Positions 1,216-32,740 of a stretch of 64,000 bases of DNA are shown in pieces. The first letter of the stretch is position 1. Each line of letters opens with the position of its first letter. The stretch lies in the sequence record PZ445439.1. The stretch is one strand, 5' to 3'. The stretch comes from a phage. The translations under genes were made by a program, and so were the position numbers. The notes beneath the pieces are model-generated. The model was not told the DNA's origin, did not search any database, and saw only the letters and a list, made by a program, of their open reading frames with translations.

Positions 1216-3912
1216 TCAGCCAAACAGGAAGTCTAACGAAGCTTTTTCTTCATAGTCCATACCAGCCGATTCACACATGCCTGCAAGCGGTTTAACAAAC
1301 GATTTTTGGAACAAAGTTGAGTAGTCAATCCAAGACAGTACGTCAGAACGAATTTCTTTTGGAAGTTCTGTACCCGACGGCCAAGCAATGCATTTGTCAC
1401 CAAATGGATTTCCTTCACGCAATGGAAGAACCATTACTTTATTTCCATCCAAAATTGGAGCTACACCTAAACCGCTAACAGCTCGACGATAAGTTAGCAC
1501 ACCACGAATATGGAACGGACATTTAAATCCTGGCCAACCTTTATCATCATATTTCGCTATATCGTTCGCAGTTTTTACTTCAGCAATAACTTTATAGTCA
1601 AGTTGACGATATTCTTTCTCGAAGTTCTTGTAATATTCTTGGACAGACTCTTCACCTTCCTGAAGAATACGACGAATACTTTCTTCGAGAGCTTCTTGGA
1701 CCGCTTTAGGCGTTGAACTCTGCTGAGTTTCCATACCCATGATTTTTAGATGCGGTTCAGCAAATCGCTTATCTTCCATATCATATACGTTCAGAGCATA
1801 ACGCTTTTTCGCTTTCCAAAATCCACCAACGCCCTTTGAACCAAGTGGAGGGCAAGAAATAGCTTCACGGTCCATATGCATCAGATGCTCGCGGTTATTC
1901 ATATAATCACATAACTCACGATATGCAACATCAATCATAGGTTCCATCTTTTTCTTACCGAACTGATTCATGAATTCAACTAAATCGTTCTGCTCTTTGA
2001 ATCGGTCAAGACCAACTTTTTCAATAACTTTATCTACACAAACATATACCGAATCAGTATCACCTGCTGCAATGAAATCTTCGCCATTAGTTCCGCATAC
2101 TTTATTCAGATATTCATTAATTTTACGAGCAATCCACTGAATACCAACTTGGCCGAAAATTGTGATAGCAGTAGCATTTCGCAAATCATAGTAACGGAAA
2201 TGAATATTACCAAGAGCACCGTAAAGGCTGTTAATAAGAATTTTACGGTTCAGCTGATTTGTATTAGCAAGTGTAGCCGCTTTTTCACATTCTTCAATCA
2301 AACTATTGAGAACAGATTCAGTATAATTCGATAGTTCATTTAAGAAATCATCACTGAACTTAACATATCGTTCAACTTCAGGTTTAGTTGAACAAGACCC
2401 TACGCCTTTCATAATAATCTTTTTAATAGCTTCGGCATTCATTTCTTCAGCGAACATTTTCTTTTTCCAATCTTTACGCTGGAAAAATACTTTAGCGATT
2501 TCCTTTGGAATGATACCTTCTTGATGCTTATCATACATCCATCCATTCGGAGAACAAGAATATTCATCACTCGGTTTAGGAGCTGTTCCTGCGATATATT
2601 CATGAATTGGATGAACTTTAAACTGACCACGAATAGTCTCAGGACTAATGTTAACCTGACGAATAATGCTCGGATACAGAGACGTCAAGTCAAAACTCAT
2701 AATATATCGACGAGCAATTGGTTTAGGTTCAAATACAAATGCACCCGGAAAACTTTGTTTAACGTGCGAACCTTGTTGAGGAATAACCTTGTGTTCACCT
2801 TTCAATGAGTTAAAAATAATAGCATCCCAAGTTTTAATAGGACTCATTACACCAGAAAAAGGCATTTTAGCGTAATAAGACATACTTAAAACTAGATCAA
2901 TAAACCCGCGAATTTTATCAATTGCTTGAACTGATTCTACGTCAATGATGTTATAACTAATGTATCGTTGATGATTAGTCTCACGAAGTTTATTAATAGG
3001 ACCGTCGTATGGTAATTTACCTTTTTTGGTTTCATGTTGAGCAACTGATTCCAAAGAGAATGACGGCAAATTAGTAAAAGCAAATTTCTTGTACAAATCT
3101 AAATAATCAAGAATAGATACACCATCAATAGAATAAATTTCTTTGCTGCCGTACATATTTTGAATTAGTTTAGATTTTACTCGACCGATTGGAGAGAAGC
3201 GTTTCATACTACGTTCACCGAGAACCATTTTAACGCGATTCATGATATACGGAACGTCAAATCCCTCAATATTCCAACCAGTAAAAATAGCAGGTCGTTT
3301 CTGTTCCCAGAGATTGATATATTCCATGAGCATATCACGCTCATTATCGAATGGCATATAAATTACTCGGTCAAGAATTTCTTGAGGAACTTCATCACCA
3401 CCTTCACAGTCAAGCTTAGCAGCTAACTTTGCATCCCATTTTGATACTGAACCATACATTGAATTCAAAAGGTCGAAAACATAAAAACGATCATCAATTG
3501 AATCGTAATGAGTGATAGCATCAATTTCATATTCAGCTTTCATTGGGTCAGGAAATTTATCACCAGTAACCTCAATGTCACAGTTAGCTACACGAACAAA
3601 TTTTCGGTCATAAACAATTTCTGAACCGTATGTATCACTGATATAAGCGAGTTTAAAATCGTTCATACCGAGAGCTTCGAGACCGATGTCTTCCATTCGT
3701 TTCATCCAATCTCGAGCATCTTTCATTGATGGAAATTTTTGAGGAGCGCAGTTTTTACCATAGATGTCTTTGTACTTTGACTCTTCCTTACAATGCCTAA
3801 ACATAGTTGGAAGATATTCTACTTCACGAGTACGTTCCTTTCCATTTTCATCAATATAACGTTCAACAATATTATTTCCGACTGTTTCAATAGAGATATA
3901 AAATTCTTTCAT
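1216..3912 (-). CDS. 43: DNA polymerase (family B) with 3'-5' exonuclease
   Basis: 898 aa; exo motif NCDIEV, pol motifs DLTSLYPSII and GDTDSVYV. Confidence 0.97.
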   Translation of the reverse strand: MKEFYISIETVGNNIVERYIDENGKERTREVEYLPTMFRHCKEESKYKDIYGKNCAPQKFPSMKDARDWMKRMEDIGLEALGMNDFKLAYISDTYGSEIVYDRKFVRVANCDIEVTGDKFPDPMKAEYEIDAITHYDSIDDRFYVFDLLNSMYGSVSKWDAKLAAKLDCEGGDEVPQEILDRVIYMPFDNERDMLMEYINLWEQKRPAIFTGWNIEGFDVPYIMNRVKMVLGERSMKRFSPIGRVKSKLIQNMYGSKEIYSIDGVSILDYLDLYKKFAFTNLPSFSLESVAQHETKKGKLPYDGPINKLRETNHQRYISYNIIDVESVQAIDKIRGFIDLVLSMSYYAKMPFSGVMSPIKTWDAIIFNSLKGEHKVIPQQGSHVKQSFPGAFVFEPKPIARRYIMSFDLTSLYPSIIRQVNISPETIRGQFKVHPIHEYIAGTAPKPSDEYSCSPNGWMYDKHQEGIIPKEIAKVFFQRKDWKKKMFAEEMNAEAIKKIIMKGVGSCSTKPEVERYVKFSDDFLNELSNYTESVLNSLIEECEKAATLANTNQLNRKILINSLYGALGNIHFRYYDLRNATAITIFGQVGIQWIARKINEYLNKVCGTNGEDFIAAGDTDSVYVCVDKVIEKVGLDRFKEQNDLVEFMNQFGKKKMEPMIDVAYRELCDYMNNREHLMHMDREAISCPPLGSKGVGGFWKAKKRYALNVYDMEDKRFAEPHLKIMGMETQQSSTPKAVQEALEESIRRILQEGEESVQEYYKNFEKEYRQLDYKVIAEVKTANDIAKYDDKGWPGFKCPFHIRGVLTYRRAVSGLGVAPILDGNKVMVLPLREGNPFGDKCIAWPSGTELPKEIRSDVLSWIDYSTLFQKSFVKPLAGMCESAGMDYEEKASLDFLFG

Positions 3913-27176: not shown

Positions 27177-27203
27177 ATTATACCATCCTTGGTATAAAGC
27201 GGT
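27177..27203 (-). promoter_or_regulatory. Candidate middle (MotA-type) promoter: CCGCTTTA box plus TGGTATAAT
   Basis: MotA-box-like CGCTT about 14 nt upstream of extended -10. Confidence 0.35.
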
Positions 27204-27730
27204 TATGCGAGTACCGTCTTTAACCGTTCTTCAAACTTCCGAAGAGTATTTTGGCGTTCAGCTCTTTGCTTTTTGTAAGTTTCAATACGCTCTGAAATGA
27301 GAGTGTATCGTTCATTCACTGATTCTTTCATAAAATCAGGAATTTCACGAGAAGCTTTAATCTCGTCAAATTTATCAATAACAGCTTGCTCTTCAGCAAT
27401 TAAGTTATCATACATTAAAATATCTTTCTTGATGAACTCAATATCTTCTTGAGTTACACGAGATAATTTAGATGCTTTATCCTTTTTGTACTGTTCGTTA
27501 GTATCACGAGACCAATGTAATATACGATTTTTATTCGTATTCTTGTAAATTTCTACAATACCAATCTCATCAATAATAACGATCCAATTCCAACGGGATT
27601 TGTAAATTTGTCCTCCATCAACAGTGATTTCACCTCCGATTGAGATGTCATTAAAGAACTTGCTTTGTGCTTCAGATTTAAATTTACCATCGTTGTAATT
27701 TACCAAGTTGAAAATATCTTTAGCATTCAT
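27203..27730 (-). CDS. Hypothetical protein
   Basis: Start set at MNAKDIF; the longer track ORF reads through the promoter repeat. Confidence 0.55.
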   Translation of the reverse strand: MNAKDIFNLVNYNDGKFKSEAQSKFFNDISIGGEITVDGGQIYKSRWNWIVIIDEIGIVEIYKNTNKNRILHWSRDTNEQYKKDKASKLSRVTQEDIEFIKKDILMYDNLIAEEQAVIDKFDEIKASREIPDFMKESVNERYTLISERIETYKKQRAERQNTLRKFEERLKTVLA

Positions 27731-29228: not shown

Positions 29229-29257
29229 GTTTTGTGAAAAATTTTTAAAATAAAAAG

Positions 29258-29275
29258 GGAGCCCGAAGGCTCCCT
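29258..29275 (-). terminator. Hairpin GGGAGCC-UUCG-GGCUCCC
   Basis: Immediately 3' of the nucleotidyltransferase ORF. Confidence 0.5.
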
Positions 29276-29276
29276 A

Positions 29277-30290
29277 TCATTTATAATAACTTCGATGGTT
29301 TTCGAGATACACCCTTTCAAGGAAGTCATCCCAGAAACTCATGTCTACTTTTTGCTGCATACCGTTCTTAGAAGCTTCAATGGATGCTGCTTCTACTCGA
29401 TCGACCACATCTTCCAAAAACTCTTGAACCGTTTTAAACGGATGCTTACCCAACTTCACGTCGAGAATAAATGGAGCATCTTTGAGTGGATAGACCAAGT
29501 CGCCAGTTTTGTAAATTTCCAACAGTTGAAGTCCACCACGACAAGCATGACTCAGGGCTTTCCAGTCAATGCCCTCATTCGCTTCAGCCTTACGAGCGCG
29601 TTCACCATATTCAGCATCTAATTTGTTCAGTGACTGCTTAAGCTCAATAAGAGAAAGCGTTGTCTGATATTTACGACCCAGCACAGTGTAGAACGTCTGT
29701 GGGCCTGTTTTCTCATGATTATGGAATACCCATTCACAGAATTCGTTTTCTGGAAGACGATGCTTAATATCTTCAACCTTGGTACGACGCTGCTTAATAG
29801 AACCATCTTCTTGATAGTCAACCCACTGATCAGGGATTTGATTAACTACTTTCAATACATCACGTAATGCAGCCAAACGAGAACCCTTAACGCCATATTT
29901 AGAAGCTTGCTTGCGGACATATCCTAAATAGGATTTCATGTTAGTCGTATAAAAACGAGAACGGTTGTCTTGAATAAACTTCCATACGTCAGGCAAATCA
30001 GATTTAACCACTAGTTCAGGTGGAGTGTGAAGCATATCTAATGCTACAGTTTCACCATCTGCTGCTAATTTAAAGAAATACTTAAGACTATACAATTCGT
30101 GGTCAATATCATCTTTAGTGTTTTTAGATGATGTGTTGTTAGTGTTTTTACTCATGTGCTCTTTAACGTTTCCAATAAGAATATCACGAGCAGGAGGAAC
30201 AAAAATTTCTTTAAAATCTACATCAGATTCTGGGGTAGAAGTTCCATAAAGATGACTACCAAAATAGCTTTTCATTACTGTTTTCATCAT
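29277..30290 (-). CDS. Pol-beta-superfamily nucleotidyltransferase-like protein
   Basis: N-terminal GSHLYGTSTPESDVDF (G-S...D-x-D) motif; 337 aa. Confidence 0.6.
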   Translation of the reverse strand: MMKTVMKSYFGSHLYGTSTPESDVDFKEIFVPPARDILIGNVKEHMSKNTNNTSSKNTKDDIDHELYSLKYFFKLAADGETVALDMLHTPPELVVKSDLPDVWKFIQDNRSRFYTTNMKSYLGYVRKQASKYGVKGSRLAALRDVLKVVNQIPDQWVDYQEDGSIKQRRTKVEDIKHRLPENEFCEWVFHNHEKTGPQTFYTVLGRKYQTTLSLIELKQSLNKLDAEYGERARKAEANEGIDWKALSHACRGGLQLLEIYKTGDLVYPLKDAPFILDVKLGKHPFKTVQEFLEDVVDRVEAASIEASKNGMQQKVDMSFWDDFLERVYLENHRSYYK

Positions 30291-30748
30291 TCAGCCTTAT
30301 ATTCAATAACAGGACACACTTTAGCTTTACGGGCTTTTAAAAATTCGATAATAAGAGATTTCTTAGGTTGAATAGGAGGTAAATCTTTATACGCTCTATT
30401 AATATTTTCTACGTGTAAAGCATAATCCTTTTTCCATTTATAATTTTTATATTTTTCACGCAAACGCGCAGGAATAACAAATGAACCGATAATAAGTAAA
30501 ACAACCAAAAGAGCAAGTATAAATGCCGATGGAAGAAGAGTCCATAAACTACCGAAAATAAGCCAACGTTGTAGACTTTCTGCACAAATAATTGTTAGCC
30601 CTACGAGTATAGCACACCCAAAAATAAAAACAAAAAATGTAGGGATAGCAATAGACCAAAAGTATGCACATAGTGTCTTAGGCCGTTGCCATTCGTCGTT
30701 AAACAATTTGAACAATTTATAGTGCCAAGAGTTTTCATTAATAATCAT
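30287..30748 (-). CDS. Integral membrane protein (about 3 TM)
   Basis: 153 aa; ATGA overlap with nucleotidyltransferase start. Confidence 0.55.
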   Translation of the reverse strand: MIINENSWHYKLFKLFNDEWQRPKTLCAYFWSIAIPTFFVFIFGCAILVGLTIICAESLQRWLIFGSLWTLLPSAFILALLVVLLIIGSFVIPARLREKYKNYKWKKDYALHVENINRAYKDLPPIQPKKSLIIEFLKARKAKVCPVIEYKAE

Positions 30749-30750
30749 AA

Positions 30751-31272
30751 TTATCCTTTCATTGAAGGTGTAATAGTTGTTAAATACTTAATCATAGCTT
30801 CAGCTTCTGATTTTGATAATGAAATTTCTCCATTGTTTTGACGAATAGAAATAAAATCCGGATGACGGTCACCACCAGCTTTTAAAACACACATATAAGT
30901 ATCAGCTTCGTCTTCAATATTTGAAATGATTGAAGCAGTTCCACATGAATGTGGTTTTTGATAAATCAATACGGCTTTTCTTCCACCATTTGACTGTTCA
31001 TAGGCTTTTAATACATCAAACAAATCAGTTCTTTTATCAATAGCTAAAATGTTATTTTCATCTTCAATGTTAAATCCTTCGGATACTTCATAAAGCGTTA
31101 CCCATAAATCACCAATGTCAATAACAGCATTTACGTTTCCACGGCTTTCAAGAGTATTACAAATTTTCTTGATTTCGTCATAACTCATTTTAATAATATC
31201 ATCTCCTTGACTAAGGAAGATGTCATTTTTAAATTCAACACGAATTAAACCACTTTCACTTGAAATATACAT
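30751..31272 (-). CDS. Unknown protein, tandem paralog B
   Basis: Shares GFNIE-E block and C-terminal EA-A-xxYL-xx-P-M tail with 31279..31824. Confidence 0.55.
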   Translation of the reverse strand: MYISSESGLIRVEFKNDIFLSQGDDIIKMSYDEIKKICNTLESRGNVNAVIDIGDLWVTLYEVSEGFNIEDENNILAIDKRTDLFDVLKAYEQSNGGRKAVLIYQKPHSCGTASIISNIEDEADTYMCVLKAGGDRHPDFISIRQNNGEISLSKSEAEAMIKYLTTITPSMKG

Positions 31273-31278
31273 ATTTCC

Positions 31279-31824
31279 TCACTTTGAAATCATAGTTGGA
31301 ATGACAGAATCAAGATAAGTCTTTAGCGCAATAGCTTCATCTTTGGTAAATGTGACAATATGCGATCGAAAATCATCAGTTTGACGAATAGTTAAGACAT
31401 CTCCATCTTCATAGCATTTTGATACATTTAAAACAGTTTCATCATTCTGATCGCAAGCATTAGTAATAATAGCATTGCGATTTTTAAACCATTTTAAAAT
31501 GTGTTTTCTTTCATTAGAATAATAAAAATATTTAATCTTAGTTATAAAATTATCCCAATTGTTAATTGATAAGCATATAGACTCGCTTTCAATATTAAAT
31601 CCTGGGCATAAAGAATAAAAATGAATTTTATGCTCATCATTAATGCTTACAATTTTATCAGTATAAGGATTTTCAATTTGGGTTAAATGAATGATTTCAC
31701 TAGGCGTAAAATATAGCATATCGTCTTCTTGTGTCAAACGATACATATTATTTACTTTTTCTATAGCCAATTCACCAAAAAGTGAACTAACTTCTAATAC
31801 TAATCGTTTTGCCTCTCCCATCAT
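31279..31824 (-). CDS. Unknown protein, tandem paralog C
   Basis: 181 aa; paralog of 30751..31272. Confidence 0.55.
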   Translation of the reverse strand: MMGEAKRLVLEVSSLFGELAIEKVNNMYRLTQEDDMLYFTPSEIIHLTQIENPYTDKIVSINDEHKIHFYSLCPGFNIESESICLSINNWDNFITKIKYFYYSNERKHILKWFKNRNAIITNACDQNDETVLNVSKCYEDGDVLTIRQTDDFRSHIVTFTKDEAIALKTYLDSVIPTMISK

Positions 31825-31928
31825 TACATGCTCCTTTGAATAATATCAATAATGTTGTTCACCAGATTATAAGTAAACATTGGGTAATTATATTGAATCA
31901 TCACATACACAACAAACAAAACTTTCAT
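31824..31928 (-). CDS. 34 aa hydrophobic leader ORF, not in ORF track
   Basis: AAGGAG ribosome-binding site 8 nt upstream; stop overlaps start of paralog C. Confidence 0.35.
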   Translation of the reverse strand: MKVLFVVYVMIQYNYPMFTYNLVNNIIDIIQRSM

Positions 31929-31951
31929 TCTCTTCTCCTTGGCAGTTGACA

Positions 31952-31986
31952 AGATTACTATACCATAACCTTGCCAACTTGTAAAC
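31952..31986 (-). promoter_or_regulatory. Early promoter (-35 GTTTACA, -10 TGGTATAGT)
   Basis: Upstream of leader ORF and cassette. Confidence 0.5.
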
Positions 31987-31991
31987 CGTTA

Positions 31992-32162
31992 AATGTTGTT
32001 TTCAATAAAATTTTGAAGCTTTGTATGAGCATCAACCATGATTTTCATTTCTTCTTTGGCGAAAGCTGTACCTCTTTCCCGAGAAGAATATTCATAGTCA
32101 GAAACTGCATTAGCATATTCTTCAATTAGCTTCATTAAAAACATCTGCTTTTCAGTTTTCAT
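31992..32162 (-). CDS. Hypothetical 56 aa protein, not in ORF track
   Basis: ATG 32162 to stop at 31992; read by hand. Confidence 0.3.
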
Positions 32163-32346
32163 TATTCCACCTAATCATTTCAAGATATTGAACTAACTTA
32201 GCTTTGGATTTATCCAAATCCTTTTTAGCTGCTTCTATACCGTCGTATGAATATCCTTCACAATGCTCAACTGCTAATTGATATGAATCTATTTCAATAT
32301 CACGTGCTAATTTAATGATTTTTTCAAACTGTTCATGTGTTAGCAT
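32152..32346 (-). CDS. Hypothetical protein
   Basis: 64 aa ORF. Confidence 0.45.
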   Translation of the reverse strand: MLTHEQFEKIIKLARDIEIDSYQLAVEHCEGYSYDGIEAAKKDLDKSKAKLVQYLEMIRWNNEN

Positions 32347-32348
32347 AC

Positions 32349-32552
32349 TTAAACTCTCGTATTATGATCGATAATTTCATCGAGAAACATATCTAAAGCT
32401 TCTACAGCATTATCAACTTTCGCTTCAAGTTCATCAATACCTTTATTTGCAATGCCTGACGAAAACCAAGCAAAGTCGCTAAGTTCCTCATCTGCTTTAC
32501 GAATTAAAGCCACCAATTCTTTAATCTTATCCGCTTGTTCGATACTAATCAT
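32349..32552 (-). CDS. Hypothetical protein
   Basis: Start at internal ATG after upstream stop. Confidence 0.45.
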   Translation of the reverse strand: MISIEQADKIKELVALIRKADEELSDFAWFSSGIANKGIDELEAKVDNAVEALDMFLDEIIDHNTRV

Positions 32553-32740
32553 TATTCCACCACATATGAAAGAGAGAATATTGCACACGCCATGTGAGTT
32601 GCAACTTCATCACACATATTATAGCGTTTCTTAAGAAGTTCTACAAGTTCTTCACTAGTAACTTCATCCATGTCGACGAAAAAATCACCATTAATGATGA
32701 CGTAAATATTTCCTTCTTTATTGAGTGCTTCAATTTTCAT
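32552..32740 (-). CDS. Hypothetical protein
   Basis: Start set at [10 protein letters not shown] downstream of the promoter. Confidence 0.45.

Follow-up and report, generated by a model that had tools for sequence, protein, structure and literature searches.

Do the five genes packed between an early promoter and a terminator on one strand of this phage DNA encode a coordinated module, or do they code for separate accessory proteins? An earlier note on the window, i.e., the whole 64,000-nucleotide stretch of record PZ445439.1 that was analyzed, had described two paralogs, a membrane protein, and a nucleotidyltransferase here and likened them to the layout of signaling or anti-defense modules. 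As set out below, we consider it likely that the products are separate, dispensable accessory proteins rather than parts of one machine, encoded by a common T-even allele.

Organization of the unit and its distribution among T-even phages

The locus holds five tightly packed open reading frames (ORFs), all on the minus strand and bounded by an early promoter and a terminator. The sigma-70-type early promoter (positions 31957..31987, minus strand) features a GTTTACA -35 element and a TG-extended TATAGT -10 element; as TTTACA-17-TATAGT plus TG extension it reached 10/12 in the consensus scan, and it shares homology with the -35/-10 signals that the T4 record U76612 lists ahead of mobD.2. Directly 3′ of the last gene, nrdC.11, lies an intrinsic terminator (29256..29275, minus strand), consisting of an 8-bp GC-rich stem and a T run. 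A motif scan for the T4 late-promoter motif TATAAATA found none inside the unit. Transcription from the single early promoter would run through mobD.2, mobD.1, RB32ORF097c, RB32ORF096c, and nrdC.11 up to the terminator (the two RB32-type genes are called ORF097c and ORF096c below).

The first gene, mobD.2 (31824..31928, minus strand), encodes a hydrophobic protein of 34 amino acids (aa) and is annotated under this name in T4 and RB51. It had previously been taken for a leader ORF with an AAGGAG site. Both the ORF and the site (31940..31935, 6 nt before the ATG) were borne out, but mobD.2 is a conserved small gene (dN/dS 0.0 to 0.2) rather than a mere leader peptide. In T6-type phages, additional ORFs are located between mobD.2 and mobD.1. 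In the window, mobD.2 and mobD.1 overlap by 1 nt (TAATG), mobD.1 is followed after 6 nt by the 173-aa ORF, a gap of 2 nt leads to the 153-aa ORF, and the latter overlaps the 337-aa nucleotidyltransferase at an ATGA. Hence, every structural element of the described promoter and four-ORF cassette, with its gaps of 2 to 6 nt or ATGA overlap, is present on the minus strand. Because the genes are packed so tightly, their translation is probably coupled. Purifying selection acts on each of the five ORFs (dN/dS 0.0 to 0.32 against other Tequatrovirus sequences), which are therefore real genes, not chance ORFs.

The cassette is already known, in that hundreds of T-even genomes have it annotated, for the most part as hypothetical proteins. 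It was found with 90 to 96% DNA identity in 496 phage records, in 355 of which at least 80% of the cassette was covered. The synteny comparison with T4, T2, T6, and the RB phages that the earlier note had suggested revealed the same layout in T2, T6, RB14, RB32, and RB51 and a replacement by mobD in T4. Close orthologs in the same arrangement, which the earlier note had said would count against its reading if their assigned functions were unrelated, do exist in these five phages, but they carry no assigned functions. Homology to T4 is interrupted between window positions 30291 and 31254, where T4 has the HNH gene mobD in place of ORF096c and of ORF097c except for the latter's first 19 nt; mobD.1 and nrdC.11 are retained in T4 without the two middle genes. 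The expectation of an HNH mob gene at this position, absent from the window, was thus well founded: T4 mobD, a free-standing HNH homing endonuclease locus, occupies exactly this slot between nrdC.11 and mobD.1, whereas the unit in the window has no HNH domain and represents an endonuclease-free allele with two cellular-type genes in the slot and no counterpart of the T4 mobD segment.

Dhakavirus and Mosigvirus carry the order y05I (the family of mobD.1), membrane protein gene, and nrdC.11, and the membrane gene is therefore ancestral. The unit in the window is probably the common Tequatrovirus allele, and the ancestral one, of the early region flanked by nrdC.10 and mobD.2a, and in the T4 lineage the homing endonuclease gene mobD would have replaced ORF096c and nearly all of ORF097c. 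T4 is then the exception at this locus, lacking two genes that T2, T6, and the RB phages share, and because mobD replaced both of them, T4-based genetics could never have revealed the role of ORF097c or ORF096c.

The nucleotidyltransferase NrdC.11

The last gene, nrdC.11 (29277..30290, minus strand; 337 aa), had been read as a Pol-beta-type nucleotidyltransferase, and profile searches agree: the protein matches the Pfam family RlaP (PF10127), a member of this superfamily, with 43.8 bits (cutoff 23) over residues 7 to 135, and phrog_388 with an E value of 9e-137. The Pol-beta signature hG[GS]...D.D is found in the translation at residues 10 to 26 (FGSHLYGTSTPESDVDF), where it takes the form of an N-terminal GS...DVD motif. 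The gene is under strong constraint, with a dN/dS of 0.03. NrdC.11 of T4 has likewise been assigned to PF10127, and RlaP was found to add nucleotides to RNA 3′ ends for repair in vitro (PMC12776372). NrdC.11 shares with the Pseudomonas enzymes PfRlaP and PaRlaP the GS...DxD motif, and it passes the Pfam gathering score, although only its N-terminal ~130 residues align with the RlaP model, and the T4 protein belongs to cluster 5, as opposed to cluster 1a for the PfRlaP/PaRlaP type (PMC12776372). Another difference concerns the genomic association of RlaP with an RNA ligase: nrdC.11 has no adjacent RNA ligase gene here, and none is present within the five-gene unit. Searches of PDB sequences with NrdC.11 yielded nothing useful.

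Judged by its family matches, NrdC.11 is an RlaP-family enzyme and not a signaling cyclase. As such, it would add one or two nucleotides to the 3′-OH of damaged RNA, for example, tRNA, and this 3′ addition might allow the phage kinase/ligase pathway to restore tRNAs trimmed by host ribotoxins. Membership in RlaP connects NrdC.11 with tRNA repair as classically described for T4 rather than with nucleotide signaling.

The y05I paralogs and the membrane protein

The second gene, mobD.1 (31279..31824, minus strand), encodes an acidic protein of 181 aa (pI 5.1) that comprises the N- and C-domains of the y05I family, as indicated by Pfam, phrog_1502, and orthology to T4 MobD.1, the protein that the Pfam families call y05I; the DNA is 93.6% identical to T4 across the block. 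The third gene (30751..31272, minus strand) encodes its 173-aa paralog (pI 4.7), which corresponds to RB32ORF097c and RB51ORF104. Both proteins exceed the gathering cutoffs of T4_y05I_N (PF24449, 24.9 bits) and T4_y05I_C (PF24448, 27 bits), with 138.8 bits (E 1e-40) and 73.3 bits (E 2e-20), respectively, for MobD.1 and 113.6 and 80.8 bits for ORF097c. Their proposed paralogy was confirmed by 29% identity over 176 columns (BLASTP E 3e-12), and the GFNIE-E block and the C-terminal tail (EA-A...YL...M) on which it had been based are invariant in the family alignment, with P169 nearly invariant. T4 has a single y05I copy, compared with two in the window, and nothing essential differs otherwise; no third paralog turned up when the window was searched for one. 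The Pfam label for the family reads “putative transcription factor.” In the literature, “mobD.1” appears only in a review table, and “y05I” gave nothing relevant.

While the paralogs had initially been said to match no recognizable fold, they match the two y05I families, and structure prediction points to a fold of the PC4/PUR/Whirly type. The predicted structure of the 173-aa paralog features three beta-sheet-plus-helix repeats, with beta-beta-beta-beta-alpha units paired into a domain, and resembles MRP1/2 and Pur-alpha. Moreover, the HMMs of the y05I C- and N-domains cross-match, which is a signal of internal repeats, and stand-alone y05I_C proteins of 65 to 83 aa exist. We therefore describe the paralogs as having a predicted PC4/PUR/Whirly-like fold with a three-repeat layout like that of Pur-alpha (PUR repeats I-II plus III). 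No sequence homology to PUR, Whirly, or PC4 families was detected with Pfam or with phmmer and profile searches against PDB sequences. A Foldseek search of the model against the PDB gave no match at an E value of ≤0.001, leaving the likeness to Pur-alpha unconfirmed, and against viral predicted structures it returned only the same family and other uncharacterized proteins. A further difference lies in charge: typical nucleic acid binders of the Pur-alpha and PC4-like/Whirly/MRP group are basic, whereas the y05I proteins are acidic (computed pI 4.2 to 5.8 in 17 of 19 family members), and this low pI argues against a classical basic nucleic acid-binding surface.

The PC4/PUR-like prediction nevertheless leads to a concrete binding hypothesis. 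Repeats I and II of y05I would form an intramolecular PC4/PUR-like domain, and repeat III, the y05I_C domain, would probably pair with another repeat III, as in Pur-alpha, to yield homo- or heterodimers. MobD.1 and its paralog could bind single-stranded nucleic acid; alternatively, their acidity would suit a basic protein as partner.

The fourth gene (30287..30748, minus strand) encodes a 153-aa inner-membrane protein of the RB32ORF096c type, as judged by its match to phrog_944 (E 7e-49), hydropathy, charge, and alignments. It begins with an amphipathic helix, continues with two hydrophobic spans, and ends in a basic C-tail. Three transmembrane (TM) segments had been proposed; however, since there are two long hydrophobic blocks (residues 27 to 57 and 62 to 94) and both terminal regions are basic, a 2-TM hairpin whose termini are both cytoplasmic is more likely on hydropathy and charge. 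The motifs SWH, LCxYFW, and KA.K.K.CP are invariant across genera. We read ORF096c as a hairpin protein of the inner membrane that is specific to phages and conserved at its cytoplasmic ends. The structure model is of low confidence (pLDDT 64), and searching the PDB with the profile of the protein gave no match. The similarity to the PHROG 944 phage membrane proteins, including the relatives RB69ORF104c and 44RRORF212c, spans the full length of ORF096c, and tblastn found relatives in 951 phage records. No cellular home emerged from a scan of bacterial genomes, which returned six metagenome-assembled contigs only.

One module or separate genes

Two lines of observation bear on whether these proteins act together, namely, the company that each gene keeps in other phages and the effect of losing it. 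Of 79 IMG/VR loci with the membrane gene, 46 lack the other cassette genes, and the jumbo phage BF also has it alone. At most loci of PHROG 944 members outside the T-even relatives, unlike in the window, its neighbors are unrelated; no shared partner was found there, and the upstream neighbors are unrelated both to y05I and to each other. In Jiaodavirus, Gelderlandvirus, Kagamiyamavirus, and Enterobacter phage MY742, one to three unrelated genes lie between the membrane gene and the nucleotidyltransferase. With regard to loss, a T4 deletion spanning nrdC.11 to mobD.3 is viable (PMC9825161), and in the HIDEN-SEQ transposon data mobD.1, mobD.2, and nrdC.11 of T4 as well as bas37_0206 to bas37_0210 of Bas37 are scored as nonessential. 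The conditions covered likewise show no conditional phenotype or fitness effect for the T4 or Bas37 orthologs, with two host comparisons covered for Bas37. The reading of separate accessory proteins, which we favor, is in keeping with this picture.

On the other hand, the products of the y05I and membrane genes might work as a two-component pair whose target is the host envelope or a host protein; the acidic Whirly-like protein would dock onto the 2-TM protein via the latter's basic tail in the cytoplasm, and the nucleotidyltransferase would be a mere neighbor. A parallel would be SsgB, a Whirly-fold protein whose membrane partner, SepG, positions it. The membrane gene is immediately preceded by a gene bearing y05I_C in about 30 of 33 IMG/VR loci from T-even relatives and in all nine annotated Straboviridae genomes examined (junctions of -11 to +23 nt), and ORF097c and ORF096c were lost together in T4; both the adjacency and the joint loss would also fit a functional pair. 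Yet the adjacency may simply be inherited, as gene order is conserved across the entire rI-to-nrdC.10 region in T-even relatives, and the membrane protein has unrelated neighbors at the 46 loci outside this group. All in all, we regard such a pair as unlikely. If it existed and served anti-defense, it would constitute a new kind of phage countermeasure.

A more inclusive proposal is an integrated RNA-repair or anti-ribotoxin module in which the PUR/MRP-like y05I proteins would hold damaged tRNA fragments in the manner of the MRP1/2 RNA matchmaker, the membrane protein would provide an anchor, and NrdC.11 would rebuild 3′ nucleotides before ligation. The close spacing and cotranscription of the genes, the order y05I-membrane protein-RlaP kept in Tequatrovirus, Dhakavirus, and Mosigvirus, the likeness of the paralog model to MRP1/2 and Pur-alpha, and the RlaP activity demonstrated in vitro are all consistent with it. 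What speaks against it is the acidity of the y05I proteins, the wide occurrence of the membrane protein and of RlaP without the others, the unrelated ORFs that split their genes in the four taxa named above, the presence of nrdC.11 and mobD.1 in T4 without the middle genes, and the lack of any fitness effect in the HIDEN-SEQ screens covered. Integration of this kind is thus quite unlikely.

We deem it improbable, too, that y05I constitutes the first full Pur-alpha architecture outside eukaryotes and joins the 2-TM protein in a membrane-tethered complex that binds single-stranded nucleic acid, or competes for it as an acidic mimic, so as to counter host defense, a function that T4 would have lost upon invasion by mobD. 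If true, this loss would explain why the function was never found.

A coordinated signaling or anti-defense module is not supported. Its narrower form, a nucleotide-signaling or signal-sponging anti-defense module built around a cyclase-type nucleotidyltransferase, appears very improbable: the general layout, in which unknown small genes accompany a membrane protein and a nucleotidyltransferase, would suit it, and nearby nrdC-region genes do act against defense systems (nrdC.1 against Septu and bas37_0203 against Druantia III), but the nucleotidyltransferase matches RlaP, which extends RNA 3′ ends, and no cyclase-type family; none of the five proteins matched a cyclase-type Pfam model, and PADLOC and NCBIfam gave only noise; and the HIDEN-SEQ comparisons covered list no conditional phenotype. 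Finally, the idea that the two paralogs are decayed homing endonuclease domains, remnants of an older mobile element, prompted by their position matching that of T4 mobD, is almost certainly wrong and was rejected on fold and selection, as Pfam and PHROG detected no HNH or GIY-YIG domain in any product and no LAGLIDADG signal in the paralogs, whose predicted fold is PC4/PUR-like and which have dN/dS values of 0.14 to 0.32 and orthologs conserved across genera.

A candidate variant of the cassette in PE37-type phages, in which the membrane gene seemed to be truncated, was likewise rejected: the gene is intact, the RefSeq call is merely short, and the DNA that fails to align corresponds to a divergent allele of the mobD.1 N-domain.

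A conserved early unit of T-even phages

The cassette is an early accessory transcription unit already known from T-even phages, in which it is conserved and dispensable. In this T4-like (Tequatrovirus) phage, its five ORFs lie on the minus strand behind a promoter found by sequence scan (TTTACA-17-TATAGT with a TG extension, 31985..31957), which is homologous to the -35/-10 signals annotated 5' of mobD.2 in the T4 record U76612. An AAGGAG ribosome-site motif (31940..31935, minus strand) precedes a 34-aa ORF (31928..31824), which is indeed present but is the conserved small gene mobD.2 rather than the mere leader proposed in the earlier note. Its stop is overlapped, as TAATG, by the ATG of mobD.1 (181 aa, 31824..31279), followed after a 6-nt gap by RB32ORF097c (ORF097c; 173 aa, 31272..30751), after a 2-nt gap by RB32ORF096c (ORF096c; 153 aa, 30748..30287) and, through an ATGA overlap, by nrdC.11 (337 aa, 30290..29277), all on the minus strand. 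A clear intrinsic terminator on the same strand (29275..29256), an addition to the earlier description, closes the unit, and a motif search found no T4 late promoter within it. Against other Tequatrovirus sequences, dN/dS is 0.0 to 0.32 for all five ORFs, with the strongest constraint on nrdC.11 (0.03). Layout, signals and these purifying values thus confirm that one promoter and a 34-aa ORF with an AAGGAG site lead into four ORFs joined by 2- to 6-nt gaps or an ATGA overlap. A near-consensus σ70-like site (TTGACA-16-TATATT with TG, 11/12) also lies inside the mobD.1 coding sequence (31710..31737, minus strand); the region contains no more such sites than expected by chance.

Matches to the 1.7-kb segment occur in 496 phage records (90 to 96% identity; coverage of at least 80% in 355), including T2, T6, RB14, RB32, RB51 and PP01, and RB51 is annotated with the same series, mobD.2, mobD.1, RB32ORF097c (“similar to mobD.1”), RB32ORF096c and nrdC.11. 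The synteny expected with T2, T6 and the RB phages therefore holds, whereas T4 carries mobD.2, mobD.1, mobD and nrdC.11: the HNH homing endonuclease gene anticipated at this position occupies the slot in T4 and is absent from the window. Aligned with T4, the window loses homology between 30291 and 31254, indicating that about 808 bp with mobD replace 962 bp (ORF096c and ORF097c minus its first 19 nt). Those 19 nt of the ORF097c frame persist in T4 between mobD and mobD.1 (T4 locus L001, 7259..7283, corresponding to window 31254..31278), a vestige that marks the edge of the endonuclease replacement. Since a single y05I gene is followed by the membrane gene ORF096c and then nrdC.11 in Dhakavirus IME08 and Mosigvirus KMB38, the endonuclease-free state would be ancestral and T4 the derived exception. 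A review table places the mobD insertion between nrdC.11 and mobD.1, with its target unknown (PMC2988022). In PE37- and PhiZZ6-type phages (L012, L013), the mobD.1 N-domain region (window 31414..31820) is represented by an allele that diverges at the DNA level, and PhiZZ6 has a divergent membrane-gene allele as well; the locus is therefore mosaic.

The y05I paralogs and their predicted fold

MobD.1 and ORF097c proved to be paralogs, as proposed (29% identity, E 3e-12), and each scores well beyond the cutoffs of Pfam T4_y05I_N and T4_y05I_C. Theirs is a narrow family: among 1.84 billion representative proteins, a profile search gave 24 matches, which include proteins of full length as well as stand-alone C-domains of 65 to 83 aa. 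N- and C-domain HMMs cross-match, which shows sequence homology between the repeats. The view that the paralogs have no recognizable fold is not supported, given the family assignment and a predicted PC4/PUR-like fold, although Foldseek found no significant match for the model in the PDB. In structure comparison, the paralog model scored 10.2 with Drosophila Pur-alpha repeats I-II, 8.1 with both MRP2 and SsgB, 7.1 with Whirly p24, and about 5 to 6 with Pur-alpha repeat III, PC4, Sub1, YdbC and Borrelia Pur-alpha. As modeled, the y05I layout would resemble Pur-alpha in combining an intramolecular two-repeat domain with a third repeat able to stand alone; Pur-alpha is the sole reported protein with both PC4-like domain types, according to a review (PMC7549692). 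Searches with Pfam, with phmmer and of PDB sequences by profile gave no sequence-level link between y05I proteins and PUR, Whirly or PC4. Moreover, y05I proteins are acidic (pI 4.2 to 5.8), unlike typical binders of the PC4/PUR/Whirly fold. In SsgB, the same fold can also serve protein recruitment. Based on the model, the paralogs most likely act as a dimeric PC4/PUR-like binding protein.

In a natural chimera, a single gene directly 5' of the membrane gene combines the N-domain of mobD.1 with the C-domain of ORF097c (protein P0011; locus L101, 2501..3040; six contigs). Unequal crossover between the tandem paralogs is its probable origin.

Probable RNA repair, a membrane protein and the question of a module

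NrdC.11 matches Pfam RlaP (43.8 bits, cutoff 23) and has the GS...DVD motif. A 2025 preprint places T4 NrdC.11 in this family, whose enzymes it shows to extend RNA 3'-OH ends by one or two nucleotides and to be required for over-trimmed tRNAs to regain function (PMC12776372). Its most likely role, by sequence homology, is RNA 3'-end repair.

ORF096c, which matches the PHROG 944 profile, is a membrane protein as proposed, but its two hydrophobic blocks with basic termini on either side make two spans likelier than three. Three motifs are invariant across genera: NSWH, LC.YFW where the first span begins, and KA.K.K.CP close to the C terminus; the predicted structure is of low confidence. By tblastn, homologs occur in 951 phage records, jumbo phages included, and a scan of bacterial genomes gave only six contigs, all metagenome assembled. 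ORF096c is most likely a phage-specific inner-membrane protein. His9, Cys27 and Cys145 are invariant (alignment A5; 30287..30748, minus strand) and predicted to face the cytoplasm, where they could form a metal site or a disulfide that links the N-terminal helix with the start of TM1 and the C-tail. PE37 has an intact 153-aa membrane gene that is annotated at only 73 aa.

The ORF directly 5' of the membrane gene carries y05I_C, full-length or stand-alone, in all nine annotated Straboviridae genomes compared (several genera; junctions of -11 to +23 nt) and in about 30 of 33 IMG/VR loci that carry T-even markers, and the membrane gene follows y05I_C genes in metagenomic contigs too. The chimera retains the C-domain of the membrane-proximal paralog, and ORF096c may be a partner of the y05I C-domain. 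Alternatively, the adjacency may simply be inherited, as gene order is maintained across the whole stretch from rI to nrdC.10 in T-even relatives. Other T4-like lineages have tandem pairs of stand-alone y05I_C genes 5' of the membrane gene (L107, 2501..2963; L024 and L025, 2491..2998), so duplication at this position has produced y05I-type pairs more than once.

A signalling or anti-defence module, as the earlier note had suggested, is not supported. NrdC.11 is an RlaP protein and matched no cyclase-type or defence-system model in Pfam, PADLOC or NCBIfam, and the parts occur separately: 46 of 79 IMG/VR loci lack T-even markers and have the membrane gene among unrelated neighbors with no y05I or RlaP nearby, one to three unrelated genes separate the membrane and RlaP genes in four lineages, and T4 keeps mobD.1 and nrdC.11 without the two middle genes. 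Orthologs are also dispensable. A T4 deletion from nrdC.11 to mobD.3 is viable (PMC9825161), and HIDEN-SEQ classes mobD.1, mobD.2 and nrdC.11 of T4 and bas37_0206-0210 of Bas37 as non-essential; log2 fold changes for the Bas37 genes are near zero in two host comparisons. These genes equal the cassette in sizes and spacing, except that mobD.1 has 177 aa and lies farther from mobD.2. For the unit as a whole, gene identity, layout, predicted fold and dispensability are established, and the activities of the products are inferred.

Neighboring genes and annotation errors

By size and position, the 528-nt ORF at 27203..27730 (minus strand) is nrdC.8; matched to it on the same two features, bas37_0203 of Bas37 is reported to inhibit the Druantia type III defence system (HIDEN-SEQ preprint). 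RefSeq records (hits H2, H10, H28 and others) label mobD.1 and mobD.4 [quoted passage not shown] and nrdC.x “thioredoxin,” labels that seem to be mistakes carried over from the names of the genes. Just 5' of the promoter lie three tandem small DUF7438 paralogs of 57, 64 and 79 aa (mobD.2a, mobD.3 and mobD.4; 31989..32588, minus strand), and the “helicase loader” label on relatives in some records looks unfounded. T6-type phages have two extra ORFs 5' of mobD.1, Phage_tudor (88 aa) and DUF7438 (61 aa), at 3037..3490 in T6 (L014), where they sit between mobD.2 and mobD.1, and at 2046..2499 in L101; in other genera, a Phage_tudor gene is the usual 5' neighbor of y05I_C.
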